A stretch of DNA of 63,653 bases, counting the filler, from Folioceros fuciformis (taxonomy: Eukaryota): the NCBI GenBank assembly GCA_049999805.1. It is 7 parts of 7 records of this genome, joined end to end, with 100 filler letters (N's around TTAATTAATTAA, not from the genome) between each part and the next. Parts side by side here need not be neighbours in the genome. Positions count along the whole stretch, not along the records: positions 33,048 to 44,970 come from JBNGIO010005098.1; 6 more parts are not named here. One strand, 5' to 3'. The notes under the pieces were generated by a model. The model did no database searches and was not told the origin of the DNA. It worked only from the letters and a program-made list of their open reading frames with translations. Of the stretch, positions 35,706 to 38,700 are shown piece by piece; positions within the stretch are counted from its first letter, which is position 1, and each line of letters begins with the position of its first letter. A program made the position numbers and the translations under genes.

Positions 35706-38700
35706 TTACACTCGCCAACCAGGTATGTGTAGACCATCGAGTGGTTCAGACCAGTGTAGCTTTCTAGTCAGTGTGGTGCGGACCTCGGGACACTGCACGT
35801 TCTTCATTTTGGTCACATCGTGCGTCACTCTTGTTAGAATGCTCGCCACATCTTCGGTACGAGAGTGGTCAATGATGGCTCTCATGAAAGCTACGATGAA
35901 GTTTGTGCCTTCCTCAACATCTCTGAAGGATAAGTCTCCAGGATTGGTAGAGAAGGCGATGAGAAAATCTTTCGCCTGGTGCAAGGGTCGAATTCTTTTG
36001 CTGAGACCCTGGCTTCCCTGCACGTTTGACCCCTCGGCTTTGCTGGTAGTGGAAGAGTCGGCGAGGCACGACCCCTGTGCTTTCATGTTTCGACAAGACG
36101 GCCAGTGCCTCGACAAGCATTTATGACAACCACCTTCGGCTTGTCTGCCAAATACTCGCATTCGGCGATGGGCTTCAAAATATCTTCTTCAACATAAAGC
36201 TTCTCCACCTCCCCTGCTTCACCTGAGCAAACATACTCTCTTCCGTCTTCATCAGTTCCACCATGGGCGTTCACGCAAAACAGAAAGCAGTCGTCTTCTG
36301 CTAGGCGAGGGACCCTGAGAATGGCTTTCAACCTTGATTTCACCACGATGGCGTTCACCACGATATCTGTATCAAAATTCAACATCTCGAAGAGTGCTTC
36401 AAGTCGCCCTCTGTCTACCTGTCCTCCATGTCTGTGGTCTTCCATGCTGACTATCATTGCAAGACCTCTCCGGTGACCTGCTTTAACCCTTTCGTTAGGG
36501 TATGATAGTTCCTTCCCTGACTTGCGTAGACGCGGTACCTGTAGCTGACTTGTTCCAGCTGAAGGGCCCCTCGTTGCGTCGAGGGATGGACGGGGCCCCA
36601 AAGCAGACTGCACCTCTTCGCTACTTAACAGATCCCTGGCTTTCTCGTATACAAGGGATAGACCAGCTTCAGGCATTTCTGGCCAGCACCATTGATAATC
36701 GGACGATTTCGAGCCGGAGGAAGCCTGTACTGGATGCCTTTTATGATGATCTAAAAGAAACTTCATCAAATGCTGGTTGAGAACCGATTGACTGTGCCGG
36801 TGAATACAGAGTGTGAGCTTCTCCACACACTCAGTCCTGATGATCCCTTCTACTAGTTCAACTCCAGGACTACCTTCAGGAGAGGCACAAAATGCTCTCA
36901 GTTCCGCAACAATGCTCTGCTGGAGAAACTGGATCGTTTCGTCTTTGCTCTTGAGTGACCTCATCAAAATGTCGACACGATCCCCAATGTCCCCGGTCTC
37001 GTCCCGAATATCCCCGCTGCTCTCCAAAAACACGTCCATACCATCGTAGTTAAATCTGATCAAGTTACGCGCAATACTGTACTGATGAGACTGCATACCG
37101 CAGAGCCCATCCAACAAGATCTGTCGTAACTTGACCTGCAATGCACAACCGTTGGCGATAGTCAGGAAACCCAAGAGAGGATAAATCACTATCGACAGAT
37201 CTACAGAGAAAGTTCACAGGTAACGTACTTGGAATCTTGGAAAGAAGCCTGGACCGAGAAACGTCTTGGTTTCATCTCGGCATTGTAGCCGCCTGCCCAC
37301 GCAGTTGTACTGGCCCGCCATTTGCCAGTCCCAGTGCAGCTGTCGTTCCCCACGAAGAGCTTTACCTTCGGCGTCATCCAAGGTGAAGGGAACGAAGAAT
37401 CCAGGCCTTGGATTCGCATCATCTCGATAGCACAAGTTCAGTCTCATCATCAATGATACCAAATCTTCAACACGAATCCTGTCGGCCGCGTGCGTGTCCT
37501 TGAGGATCCGGGCTAAGGTGTCGTTGAGGAGGTCTTCAGCAATAAATCCACGGTCTCGCGATCTCCCCAAGGAAGGCTGTCCGGCTAGGCGCTCAGTGAG
37601 ATAGCCCAGGAACGAATGGCTGATCCAGTGTGGATTTACCACTACAGCATCTGCATCTTGGAACCAGATGACCCGGCCTGCATTGTGCAGATAGGCAAGA
37701 ATTGCTTGAAGGCGTTGCTCATCATCTTCCTCAAAAACCTTTTTGCATCTCTCCGTGGTCACCAGAGGCCGAGCTGGATTTTGAGATACCCAGTGTGTCA
37801 AAGCAGAGCTCAATCGATTGCACACCTTCGGTACCCAAAACAGAGGAAGCGCAAATAGCTCTTGAAATGATTGGAATAGCTGCTCCAGCAAAGGCTGCAC
37901 AATCTGTTTAGATCGAGCATCCATGAAGAAAGGCGTTGTCCTGATAAGGAGTACCTCCCCGAAAGTCTTGGCCACCTCTTCCACGGCTGGTTGCAGCAGA
38001 CCAACCAGATATTTGAAATCCAAATCCTCCATCCGATCCTTATGAGTGACAACCACAAATACCCGAGGCAAACAGGAACCCACGTTGCGAGAATTGGAGT
38101 GGATGAATCTAAGCCAAAACTTGAAGCCGTTCCTGAACTTGTCCAGCAGCATTTCATCGGACGGAAGGGGGTCGCCAGGCTTGTGGGCATCAAGTGGGTT
38201 GAATGTGAACAGGAAGACACATGTCTGGTTGAAGCTGGGGAACAAGTAGTCTTGCAGAGCTCGGTAGTGAGCTTGTCCAGCCAGATCCCAAATGGTAACT
38301 TCCATCTCGTCGTCGTTCCGCAGCACCTCGATTTCTATGCCTTCCGTTCTGGGGACTATTCCCACCTGGTTGGATGATGCGGCTCCTGTGAGTGGAACAT
38401 TACCGAACCAGGAACGATTCCAAGCTGGAGACAGTTGTTCCCACAATTGGACTTGGATGGCTGATGTAGCTCCTGTACAATGTGATGTGTGTGGTTGCGA
38501 TGCGCGCCATGCGGTGATCATGGTGTTTCGGAGAGTGGTCTTCCCCGCGTAAGGTGCACCGCACAGGAAAAGGCGGCCGACCCTGGGCTTCACAGCCTCT
38601 TGCCCCTCCAAAAGCAAAGGCCAGTAAGCCCTGTGACTAACATTGCGTGCCAACGTCGCGTTGATGATGGCCTGCTTACCCTCGATACCCCAGTTCGTGT

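Follow-up and report, generated by a model that had tools for sequence, protein, structure and literature searches.

To our knowledge, textbook teaching treats caspases as animal-only, and the 'caspase-like' activities of plant cell death have for decades been assigned to unrelated enzymes. Recent papers restrict caspases to animals and leave only metacaspases to plants (PMC10896300, PMC12521494, PMC13272413, PMC2064784). According to the last of these, Arg179 and Arg341 make the S1 pocket of caspases basic, whereas metacaspases and paracaspases possess an acidic S1 pocket, exhibit the same residue pattern as the orthocaspases used below as controls and cut after Arg or Lys. From bacteria, LRR-AP-GTPase(Roc)-COR proteins have been described which carry at least 24 C-terminal effector domains, caspase included (Kaur et al. 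2021, PMC8195603). Among the titles and abstracts searched, with subscription journals and supplements outside view, no paper describing caspase-type proteins of Marchantia, other liverworts, hornworts or other bryophytes was found.

The whole stretch of DNA analysed, called the window in the following, comprises 63,653 nucleotides (filler included) of Folioceros fuciformis (assembly GCA_049999805.1), of which positions 33,048 to 44,970 come from JBNGIO010005098.1. With a probability that we put at roughly 0.7, the minus strand from 39925 to 35706 contains a spliced LRR-Roc-COR (ROCO) gene with a C-terminal caspase-type (C14A-like) C14 peptidase, which retains the catalytic dyad and both S1 arginines, belongs to a multi-copy family and is frameshifted in this copy. 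The gene comprises about 1,370 codons, in the order RI-type leucine-rich repeats, Roc GTPase, COR-A, COR-B, linker and C14 peptidase, and the following features were located:

37229-39925, minus strand: exon 1 with RI-type leucine-rich repeats, Roc GTPase and COR-A, an open frame of 899 codons from the ATG at 39925-39923
38681-39718, minus strand: RI-type leucine-rich repeats (residues ~70-415), about 12 strand-helix repeats in the AF2 model between residues 75 and 415
38537-38560, minus strand: Roc P-loop GAPYAGKT (motif position computed)
38273-38287, minus strand: Roc motif DLAGQ (motif position computed)
38036-38047, minus strand: Roc motif THKD (motif position computed)
37136-37228, minus strand: intron of 93 nt, GT..AG, containing an in-frame stop (from the sequence and joints in contigs of run X1)
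36596-37135, minus strand: start of exon 2, a COR-B-like region common to bryophyte ROCO proteins (representative search)
36086-36499, minus strand: caspase p20 half (Pfam, phmmer, codon check)
36083-36092, minus strand: frameshift site, one base fewer than in the duplicate and the homologues, with TGA at 36085-36083 (comparison, contigs of X1-X3)
35709-36098, minus strand: inter-subunit linker and p10 half in a second frame, stop at 35706-35708 (Pfam, phmmer, codon check)
35513-35661, minus strand: possible GT..AG intron of 149 nt in the 3' UTR (35512 and 35662 are connected in one contig of run X1)
33144-33746, minus strand: degenerate partial duplicate from mid-p20 to the end of p10, with 79% DNA identity to 35826-36298
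33048-33121, minus strand: third short fragment of the p20 region, ending at the contig end (sequence comparison)

Concerning the N-terminal part, Pfam recognizes Roc in exon 1 with 29.5 bits (cut-off 27), COR-A is borderline (35.1 bits, just below the cut-off of 35.3), and the LRR families stay under threshold (best E 0.0059), such that the assignment of the repeats depends on the model. The AF2 model of the 899 residues exhibits alternating strand/helix repeats followed by a GTPase fold; its top Foldseek match is the LRR-Roc-COR part of the Chlorobium tepidum Roco protein (6hlu, E 1.7e-16), with LRRK1 and LRRK2 next, and the modelled repeats also match the leucine-rich repeats of ribonuclease inhibitor and NLRP proteins. 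GAPYAGKT, DLAGQ and THKD are presumably the G1, G3 and G4 motifs, by analogy with Ras-like GTPases. Two contigs of run X1, which is only guessed to be RNA, connect 37135 to 37229 across the 93-nt intron, a joint that was seen in none of runs X2-X4; the exon junction, FFPRFQ followed by V, is also kept in ROCO relatives. Downstream of it, residues 24-206 of the 376-residue query align just behind COR-A in ROCO proteins (e.g., P0007, residues 1140-1313).

The p20 frame finishes with ...INACRGTGRLVET and the TGA at 36085-36083, 10 codons past the catalytic Cys, and from about 36090 a different frame carries the p10 half, such that p20 and p10 are not one open frame. The partial duplicate at 33144-33746 is frameshifted in its own p20 part, yet its frame is whole across the break of the main copy, where it shows one base that the main copy lacks near 36087-36091. 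Owing to this missing base the TGA stops the p20 frame, and the frameshift would therefore leave a protein without p10 from the copy as assembled, which is probably recently dead. An intron bridging the frameshift was considered and dropped: at about 20 nt, the candidate GT..AG spans of the right phase are too small for an intron, and, apart from one base, the duplicate and the main copy align codon by codon. Programmed -1 frameshifting was likewise rejected, because no slippery heptamer was seen on reading the sequence.

In-frame variants occur in sequencing runs of the same organism. An extra base after 36087 restores the frame in 275 of 1284 of the contig depth in X1 and 34 of 155 in X2, and one after 36091 does so in 170 of 784 (X1), 36 of 199 (X2) and 44 of 88 (X3); across X1-X3, contigs with a frame-restoring base account for only about one third to one half of the depth there, the remainder having the length found in the window. 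It is possible, though on the unlikely side, that the frameshift arose in sequencing or assembly, in which case the locus codes for an uninterrupted LRR-Roc-COR-caspase protein with about 1,370 residues. The remaining 4.1 kb of coding sequence are open (899 and 350 codons without stop), the missing base falls within a short run of A, and the contigs with the extra base at either position stem from the same organism; however, the extra base is lacking from most of the contig depth at the site in both X1 and X2, and degenerate partial duplicates are situated just downstream, which points to local gene decay. Since the contigs were aligned at 90-100% likeness, the in-frame ones may moreover be paralogues. 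Contig pieces at this likeness over 4.7 kb number 388 in X1, 584 in X2 and 493 in X3 (in X4, 6 pieces aligned), and the family to which the gene belongs is multi-copy and variable.

The initial annotation had described the protease domain of this gene as one that looks like a true Asp-specific caspase and not a metacaspase, and every residue that it placed sits at its codon on the minus strand: Arg (AGA) at 36431-36433, His (CAT) at 36263-36265, Cys (TGT) at 36113-36115, Arg (AGA) at 35922-35924 and Asp (GAC) at 36057-36059. The strings HRHGGQVDRGRLEALF, NAHGG, KPKVVVINACRG, DFLIAFSTNPGDLSFR, GTNFI and QCPEVRTTLTRKL are all found in the translation. In p20, the catalytic His is situated in NAHG and the Cys in KPKVVVINACRG, in an NACRG context; in p10, DFLIAFSTNPGDLSFR with the Arg at 35922-35924 is followed by GTNFI and then by QCP..TLTRKLHW. 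Pfam Peptidase_C14 (PF00656, cut-off 21.4 bits) matches p20 with E 1.1e-9 (38.8 bits) and p10 with E 1.2e-14 (55.1 bits), a resemblance that is not due to chance. In phmmer searches against solved structures, the best match is caspase-8 for p20 (7e-7), the small subunit of an ancestral caspase-3/6/7 for p10 (1.6e-6) and zebrafish caspase-3 for the homologue P0003 (1.3e-15, in an alignment spanning p20 and p10), and the best match of the Marchantia protein P0011 reaches 3.2e-10; in each of these four queries, all 60 matches listed are caspases, those of the window's p20 and p10 being of animal type.

At the S1 positions (caspase-1 179/283/341), the window possesses Arg/Asn/Arg. Position 179 is Arg in 67 of 74 aligned domain units and position 341 in 39 of the 45 units with a residue there, whereas the eight Trichodesmium orthocaspases included as controls carry Leu or Phe at 179, Asp at 283 and Glu (five of them), Ile, Phe or Thr at 341. 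Gln283 of the QACxG pentapeptide is absent from the window, Asn standing in its place; among the 74 aligned units, Gln is found in 36, including all named animal caspases, and Asn in 22, among them all bryophyte units that are named by organism and extend over this position; the plant-side family as a whole has this change in common.

To predict fold and dimer, the closest intact homologue, P0003, was modelled in place of the window's own protein; it shares about 39% identity with the 376-residue query over the p20 part of the latter. Its AF2 model, with a pLDDT mostly above 90 in the protease domain, was compared by VIA-align and fits caspase-9 best (1jxq, Z 29.4, rmsd 2.3, 226 residues aligned), followed by 4pry (Z 29.1; 2.8, 223), 4jj7 (Z 28.8; 1.7, 213) and CED-3 (Z 24.9), with Z 29 against caspase-9, -3 and -8. 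The values are lower for c-FLIP (22.8), MALT1 (22.7; 3.3, 214), metacaspase-4 and -9 (18.9 each), Yca1 (15.6) and TbMCA2 (12.8). The superposition on caspase-3/-8 which the initial annotation had suggested, made with this homologue, favours the caspase type, lying at Z 29 above MALT1 (22.7) and the metacaspases (at most 18.9). A homodimer prediction for residues 170-435 of P0003 scored 0.74 versus 0.00 for the best of three controls; the predicted interface comprises residues 413-423 of the last beta-strand, with 417 opposite 417, the runs share at least 31% of contacts, and the pLDDT of the partner is at least 73. Of the proteins solved as same-chain pairs, 21 of 30 attained the mark applied, and of those solved as single chains none of 23 did; eukaryotic proteins attained it in 17 of 29 cases, but in only one of the seven without an older solved relative. 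The pass of P0003 may reflect caspase dimers that the predictor already knows, because such dimers have been solved.

From the sequence matches, the S1 residues, the homologue model and the trees described below, the domain is supported as caspase-type rather than metacaspase-, paracaspase- or orthocaspase-type. This part of the initial claim holds; what the initial annotation had overlooked is that p20 and p10 are frameshifted relative to each other and that the domain is only the tail of a large LRR-Roc-COR gene from a multi-copy family. The autoprocessing site CLAD/S that had been proposed in addition finds no counterpart: the duplicate reads TAN-L there and the homologues have no aligned Asp, and it was dropped as a conserved site, being absent even from the window's own duplicate. 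Judging from the two conserved arginines and the Gln-to-Asn change, Asp would be the preferred P1 residue. A caspase fold with another P1 preference, e.g., for Glu, or with the role of a scaffold like the pseudo-caspase c-FLIP, appears doubtful. The replacement of Gln283 by Asn, which is shared by 22 of the 74 units and by all organism-named bryophyte units covering the site, could alter the preference together with different loops, the dyad is missing in some family members (Gly for Cys in P0002, Tyr for His in P0035 and P0088), and c-FLIP itself fits the P0003 model with Z 22.8; the window, however, retains His, Cys and both pocket arginines, and it is these arginines from which the basicity of the pocket stems (PMC2064784).

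Relatives of the caspase-type gene are found in bryophytes. Of 30 clusters looked up, 14 were named by organism, and 13 of these are hornwort or liverwort; some of the proteins bear the automatic label 'Caspase family p20', with an identity to the window of only about 30-40%. Word-indexed homologue searches with the 376-residue frame returned nothing, either for longer proteins or for near lengths with region 200-376, which reflects the index, because the exhaustive representative search did find relatives. Uncharacterised relatives exist in Marchantia polymorpha (PTQ31690.1 / A0A2R6WCW2; Mp_6g00900, Mp_6g00860), M. paleacea (KAG6554914.1), Riccia fluitans (KAL2622267.1) and among the transcripts of Nothoceros aenigmaticus. 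Like the window, these bryophyte proteins possess a protease of the same family in which both pocket arginines and an Asn-Ala/Ser-Cys-Arg motif are kept, and in Nothoceros P0008/P0151 as well as in P0002/P0003 the COR-B-like linker is likewise situated ahead of the protease, whereas the Marchantia and Riccia proteins contain one to three alpha/beta-hydrolase domains where the window has LRR-Roc-COR.

In the phylogenetic analyses, caspase-type rows are separated from orthocaspases with a support of 100 in a quick tree (54 versus 8 rows) and of 100/100 in a careful one (48 versus 5 rows), all non-caspase rows of both trees being cyanobacterial orthocaspases. The caspase domain of the window sits on a long branch (~1.0), and its position within the caspase-type group shifts between trees: in the quick tree it is basal without resolution, and in the careful tree it is sister, at 92/89, to the group in which the named animal caspases fall. 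The nearest named non-plant relatives of the family profile are mollusc, insect and crustacean caspases, the nearest of all being mollusc caspase-2 proteins.

Concerning the origin of the family, it is improbable that the whole LRR-Roc-COR-caspase gene, or its ancestor, is bacterial and was acquired by horizontal transfer, even though bacterial conflict systems share the layout: a caspase is among the effector domains of the LRR-AP-GTPase(Roc)-COR proteins mentioned above (PMC8195603), and the best structural match of the N-terminal 899 residues is the bacterial Roco protein 6hlu. Against this stand the spliceosomal introns of the gene, the mollusc, insect and crustacean caspases as nearest named non-plant relatives, and two narrow pattern scans that found no prokaryotic relative of the window's caspase type. 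The first of these, the A3 pattern scan of the prokaryotic genomes of 185,579 species, yielded 82 stretches and no relative of caspase type; the second, with the DNA pattern for KPKxxxx[Q/N]ACRG, yielded at least 120 prokaryotic stretches, and only one of those listed encodes a caspase, on a 1,141-bp contig binned in a MAG. With P0013 as query, a metagenome scan turned up a single weak locus (L129, 33% identity).

Still far less probable is that the contig is contaminant DNA of an animal or protist that lived on the plant. The window strings together seven short contigs (about 2-16 kb each) by means of linkers, and in the careful tree its domain is sister to the group with the named animal caspases; however, the COR-B and ROCO parts are closest to hornwort and liverwort proteins (47% for Nothoceros, with Riccia and Marchantia next), assemblies of Marchantia polymorpha and Riccia place homologous caspase domains on contigs or scaffolds as long as 28 Mb and 56 Mb, respectively, a grouping of the window with the bryophyte rows is not rejected by the AU test (p 0.245), and the family is present in three runs labelled with the same organism. 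A land-plant setting of the caspase-type gene is plausible from these relatives, not from a marker gene; a look-up of a spermidine-synthase-like open reading frame yielded no taxonomic pointer. That the domain is instead a metacaspase, paracaspase or orthocaspase, i.e., an Arg/Lys-specific enzyme of the C14B type as would be expected of a C14 member outside animals (PMC10896300 and PMC12521494), can practically be set aside, given Arg/Asn/Arg in S1 versus mostly Leu/Asp/Glu in the orthocaspase controls and likewise in meta- and paracaspases (PMC2064784), zero metacaspases or paracaspases among the 60 matches listed in each of the four PDB sequence searches, the weaker fold match of MALT1 (Z at most 22.7) and the metacaspases (at most 18.9) than of the caspases (24-29), and the 100/100 split from orthocaspases.

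If the frameshifted ROCO-caspase gene stands for intact members of its family, the leucine-rich repeats may sense a ligand or keep the protein shut, and the Roc-COR GTPase switch would drive dimerisation; two protease domains would then pair via their last beta-strand, as in initiator caspases, and become active, and, as part of an immune or cell-death response, the paired proteases might cleave C-terminally of an acidic residue, probably Asp. As a tentative but real possibility, caspase-type proteases are not animal-only, and in hornworts and liverworts a C14A-like lineage with an Asp-type S1 pocket has expanded, is probably transcribed and is fused to a ROCO sensor or, in Marchantia, to alpha/beta-hydrolase modules. 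If this is true, bryophytes would possess a genuine caspase-based death or immune pathway with a single-chain counterpart of the inflammasome or apoptosome, and would owe the lineage either to an old eukaryotic heritage that vascular plants have lost or to an early transfer. A plant protease that combines caspase fold, motifs and basic S1 pocket with a sensor-switch fusion would make Asp-directed C14 proteolysis testable in early-diverging land plants, of which Marchantia is genetically tractable, and would bring a branch from outside animals into the question of caspase origins. What would be new is the recognition and the ROCO fusion; the sequences were already public under automatic labels.

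With animal caspases (MEROPS C14A), especially the initiator or apical caspase-8, -9 and -2, the gene shares p20 and p10, the xHG and KPKxxxxxACRG motifs, Arg179 and Arg341, the p10 motifs SxR and GxxF and the C-terminal QxPxxxSxLxxxxxF/W strand, as well as, through the homologue P0003, the model fit of Z 29; for P0003 a dimer via the last strand is predicted. Despite this similarity there are differences: the gene possesses no CARD, DED or other death-fold prodomain, its protease being fused directly to LRR-Roc-COR, Asn replaces Gln283, the His is situated within NAHG and not SHG, and the host belongs to a plant lineage. Plant metacaspases (C14B) and MALT1 have the caspase-hemoglobinase fold of clan CD and the His-Cys dyad in common with the window, whereas they differ in their acidic S1 pocket and in cleavage after Arg or Lys (PMC2064784), and in the weaker fold match; orthocaspases possess different motifs around the dyad. 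The bacterial LRR-AP-GTPase(Roc)-COR effector proteins (PMC8195603) resemble the gene in rapidly varying leucine-rich repeats, a Roc-COR switch, a C-terminal protease effector and many paralogues, whereas the gene is distinguished by a protease of animal-caspase type (not CHAT or orthocaspase), by introns and by its location in a eukaryotic genome. By analogy only, the presumed logic of an LRR sensor, a nucleotide switch and a caspase activated by proximity is shared with the NLR-caspase platforms of animals, i.e., the inflammasome and the apoptosome; in these, however, the switch is a STAND ATPase and the caspase is recruited via CARD/PYD adaptors, whereas the present gene has a Roc GTPase as its switch and carries the caspase on the same polypeptide.

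The codons named in the initial annotation all lie where it placed them on the minus strand, i.e., Arg at 36431-36433 (AGA), His at 36263-36265 (CAT), Cys at 36113-36115 (TGT), Arg at 35922-35924 (AGA), and Asp at 36057-36059 (GAC), and translation recovers the peptide strings HRHGGQVDRGRLEALF, NAHGG, KPKVVVINACRG, DFLIAFSTNPGDLSFR, GTNFI, and QCPEVRTTLTRKL. Both halves of the domain exceed the Pfam Peptidase_C14 cut-off of 21.4 bits (p20: 38.8 bits, E 1.1e-9; p10: 55.1 bits, E 1.2e-14). The S1 pocket of caspases is formed by Arg179, Gln283, and Arg341, whereas meta- and paracaspases possess Leu, Asp, and Asp/Glu at these positions (PMC2064784); the window has Arg/Asn/Arg. 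Among 74 aligned domain units (the window and units cut from stored matches), position 179 is Arg in 67 (gap 5, other 2), position 283 Gln in 36, Asn in 22, and Asp in 3 (other 7, gap 6), and position 341 Arg in 39 (other 6, gap 29). Eight orthocaspases of Trichodesmium erythraeum, aligned in the same way as an internal control, exhibit Leu/Phe at 179, Asp at 283, and Glu (5), Ile, Phe or Thr at 341. In P0002, Gly replaces the catalytic Cys, and in P0035 and P0088 Tyr replaces His; these three homologues, having lost the catalytic dyad, are possible pseudo-proteases.

In phmmer searches with four queries against all solved structures, every match among the 60 listed per query is a caspase. The best structures are caspase-8 for the window p20 (7e-7), the ancestral caspase-3/6/7 small subunit for the window p10 (1.6e-6), zebrafish caspase-3 for P0003, the closest intact homologue (1.3e-15, aligned from p20 through the C-terminal strand), and a caspase for P0011, a named protein of Marchantia polymorpha (3.2e-10). 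A search with the family profile A2 retrieved 23 proteins, the named ones being mollusc caspase-2 proteins with CARD, one cockroach protein, and one crab protein, and a language model places chordate caspase clusters as look-alikes of the P0003 domain (score 0.96). An AlphaFold2 model of P0003, with pLDDT mostly >90 in the protease domain, was compared with 48,161 chain representatives:

Fold matches of the P0003 model
caspase-9 (1jxq): Z 29.4, rmsd 2.3, 226 aligned
4pry: Z 29.1, rmsd 2.8, 223 aligned
4jj7: Z 28.8, rmsd 1.7, 213 aligned
Sf-caspase-1: Z 26.4
caspase-4: Z 25.0
CED-3: Z 24.9
Dronc: Z 24.3
c-FLIP: Z 22.8
MALT1: Z 22.7, rmsd 3.3, 214 aligned
metacaspase-4 and -9: Z 18.9
GSU0716: Z 18.2
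legumain: Z 17.6
Yca1: Z 15.6
TbMCA2: Z 12.8

Trees were calculated from units of at least 200 residues, after removal of one duplicate Marchantia row and two short-match hits. The quick tree (62 rows) separates 54 caspase-type rows from 8 orthocaspases with a support of 100, and the careful tree, from which long-branch rows were removed (six caspase-type, three orthocaspases), separates 48 from 5 (100/100). A bryophyte group (Nothoceros P0123, P0002, P0003, and a Marchantia/Riccia clade) is supported with 93 or 94/92, and a second group, centred on P0024 and composed of unnamed proteins from metagenomes and assemblies, with 99 and 100/99; the caspase-type side further comprises the pair P0010 and P0027 and a group with the named animal caspases. 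The window domain sits on a long branch (about 1.0), which has a basal position without resolution in the quick tree and is placed as sister of the animal-caspase group by the careful one (92/89), and its union with the bryophyte group, a group named after the tree was seen, is not rejected by the AU test (p 0.245). Since the trees consist of rows other than eukaryotic metacaspases and paracaspases, the comparison with these two groups draws on the pocket residues, the PDB sequence searches, and the fold ranking of P0003; the assignment to the caspase type rather than to the metacaspases, as originally proposed, is supported.

The window consists of seven separate contigs strung on six N44-TTAATTAATTAA-N44 linkers (16391-16490, 23710-23809, 32948-33047, 44971-45070, 53352-53451, and 61631-61730), such that adjacency across a linker does not reflect adjacency in the genome. 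The protease forms the C-terminal end of a larger gene, whose parts are listed here together with other features of the window:

33048-44970: contig holding the protease gene
39925-37229, minus strand: exon 1, 899 codons from ATG
37228-37136, minus strand: intron of 93 nt, GT..AG, with an in-frame stop inside
37135, minus strand: start of exon 2
33144-33746: partial duplicate of the protease region, 2.5 kb downstream of the main copy, 79% DNA identity to 35826-36298
6410-10726, minus strand: Ty1/copia retrotransposon frame
28284-32595, plus strand: Ty1/copia retrotransposon frame
49314-52954, plus strand: Ty1/copia retrotransposon frame
62250-63485, minus strand: Ty1/copia retrotransposon frame

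Exon 1 scores 29.5 bits against Pfam Roc (cut-off 27) and, just below the cut-off of 35.3, 35.1 bits against COR-A, and contains the motifs GAPYAGKT, DLAGQ, and THKD; all Pfam LRR models stay under threshold. Its AlphaFold2 model (18 ROCO relatives as input, mean pLDDT 77) is predicted to form about a dozen strand-helix repeats (residues 75-415), followed by a GTPase fold and a helical domain. The top Foldseek match is the Chlorobium tepidum Roco LRR-Roc-COR crystal structure (6hlu, E 1.7e-16), followed by LRRK1 and LRRK2, and the repeat part matches ribonuclease inhibitor and NLRP proteins. The first approximately 180 residues of exon 2 are read as COR-B because of their similarity to the stretch after COR-A in liverwort ROCO proteins, and the exon junction FFPRFQ|V is kept in these relatives. 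Upstream of the gene, tandem repeats of about 60 bp are situated at 41934-42174 and 40002-40374, the former inside a plus-strand frame with the repeated peptide PNMVGAIDGSHIKLATQP. Concerning the Ty1/copia frames, one encodes an open gag-protease-integrase-RT polyprotein of 1,439 residues (RVT_2 E 1e-68), and 28284-29612 and 62250-63485 were identified by eye only. A plus-strand open frame (59893-60657) has no Pfam match at E 0.01; its look-alikes according to a language model are spermine/spermidine-synthase-like methyltransferases (score 0.93).

The two halves of the protease lie in different frames, a point missed in the initial annotation: the p20 frame runs through INACRGTGRLVET into a TGA (36085-36083) ten codons past Cys, and the p10 half is encoded in a second frame that extends from about 36090 to the stop codon 35708-35706. 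The frame of the partial duplicate is unbroken across this point, and by eye the main copy is one base short in the alignment. The main copy is probably dead; a sequencing error as the source of the frameshift is less likely. In some contigs a frame-restoring extra base is found after 36087 (depth 275/1284 in the public run X1, 34/155 in X2) and after 36091 (170/784 in X1, 36/199 in X2, 44/88 in X3), and the remaining contig depth has the length of the window, such that in-frame and frameshifted versions both exist, although among these contigs, accepted down to 90% likeness, a version is not assignable to this locus. An intron bridging the frameshift is rejected, as the right-phase GT..AG spans only about 20 nt, and so is programmed frameshifting, no slippery site being seen in the main copy. 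The proposed self-cleavage site CLAD/S did not prove to be conserved.

Besides this probably dead main copy, three public runs labelled with the organism of the window yielded 388, 584, and 493 short contig pieces on the 4.7-kb gene at 90-100% likeness, which makes the gene a member of a large set of diverged copies. Two X1 contigs join 37135 exactly to 37229 across the 93-nt intron, and another skips a 149-nt GT..AG stretch 3' of the stop codon; runs X2-X4 contained no splice joints on the gene. As X1 is only guessed to be RNA, these joints are suggestive, rather than proof, of a transcribed and spliced gene family.

The window's 376-residue open frame, searched exhaustively against 1.84 billion representatives, gave 173 matches at E <=1e-3 and 43 at E <=1e-10. 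Thirty clusters were looked up, 14 of them with an organism name: Nothoceros aenigmaticus (hornwort, five), the liverwort Marchantia polymorpha (four), Marchantia paleacea (three), Riccia sorocarpa (two), Riccia fluitans (one), and a Picozoa protein with ankyrin repeats (one), some clusters containing two species, such that the counts overlap. The top match is a Nothoceros ROCO fragment (47% identity). The Marchantia and Riccia proteins, labelled 'Caspase family p20 domain-containing protein' in UniProt, carry one to three alpha/beta-hydrolase domains before the same protease; in P0011, P0016, and P0115 these domains are DUF676/PGAP1-like, and some proteins are labelled 'protein SERAC1'. Given the organism-named clusters and the location of genes on contigs or scaffolds as long as 28 Mb in Marchantia and 56 Mb in Riccia, the family is real in bryophyte genomes, and the window most likely derives from a bryophyte. 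For the read-through domain of the window, the highest-ranking single match (E 2.4e-35) comes from the P0024/P0013 group; P0024, P0013, P0032, and P0165-P0173 form a tight group of about 260 residues with a caspase domain only, from unnamed assemblies and metagenomes. The Picozoa protein (P0074) has a caspase-type p20 with an NACRG motif, then ankyrin repeats, which hints at an Asn-type lineage wider than bryophytes. Among the matches listed by two narrow scans of prokaryote genomes, none was closely related to this type of protease. A complete animal-type caspase domain (SHG and QACRG; 191-973, minus strand) on a 1,141-bp contig (L072) of a Phycisphaerales MAG is probably a mis-binned eukaryotic contig, not a bacterial caspase.

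Among the openly accessible papers listed, none describes proteins of the caspase type from Marchantia, liverworts, hornworts, or bryophytes. Since the sequences are already public under automatic labels, the novelty lies in recognition, namely of a lineage of caspase type in early land plants, whose protease is joined to a ROCO sensor in the window gene.

ROCO proteins dimerise via COR. A homodimer of the P0003 protease domain is predicted with a score of 0.74 (best of three controls: 0.00), with an interface at the last strand (residues 413-423, 417 against 417), runs agreeing in at least 31% of contacts, and a partner pLDDT of at least 73. Of the proteins solved as one-chain pairs, 21 of 30 attained the mark for a dimer, and of those solved as single chains, 0 of 23 did; for eukaryotes the figures are 17/29 overall and 1/7 without an older solved relative, and because caspase dimers are already solved, the pass of P0003 may reflect the predictor's prior knowledge of such structures. 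ROCO dimerisation and this predicted dimer lead us to propose that the GTPase might control dimerisation and proximity would then activate the protease, which would cleave after Asp. Asp specificity, the weakest link, would be based on the two arginines, with the Gln-to-Asn change ignored. The many diverged copies, the partial duplicates, and the broken copies, together with the other front ends in liverworts, are consistent with birth-and-death evolution of a sensor family.

Variable LRRs, a Roc-COR switch, and a C-terminal effector constitute the layout described for bacterial counter-invader proteins, with at least 24 alternative effectors, caspase included (PMC8195603). The window gene exhibits the same order of modules, with putative LRRs, Roc-COR, and the protease as a probable C-terminal effector.
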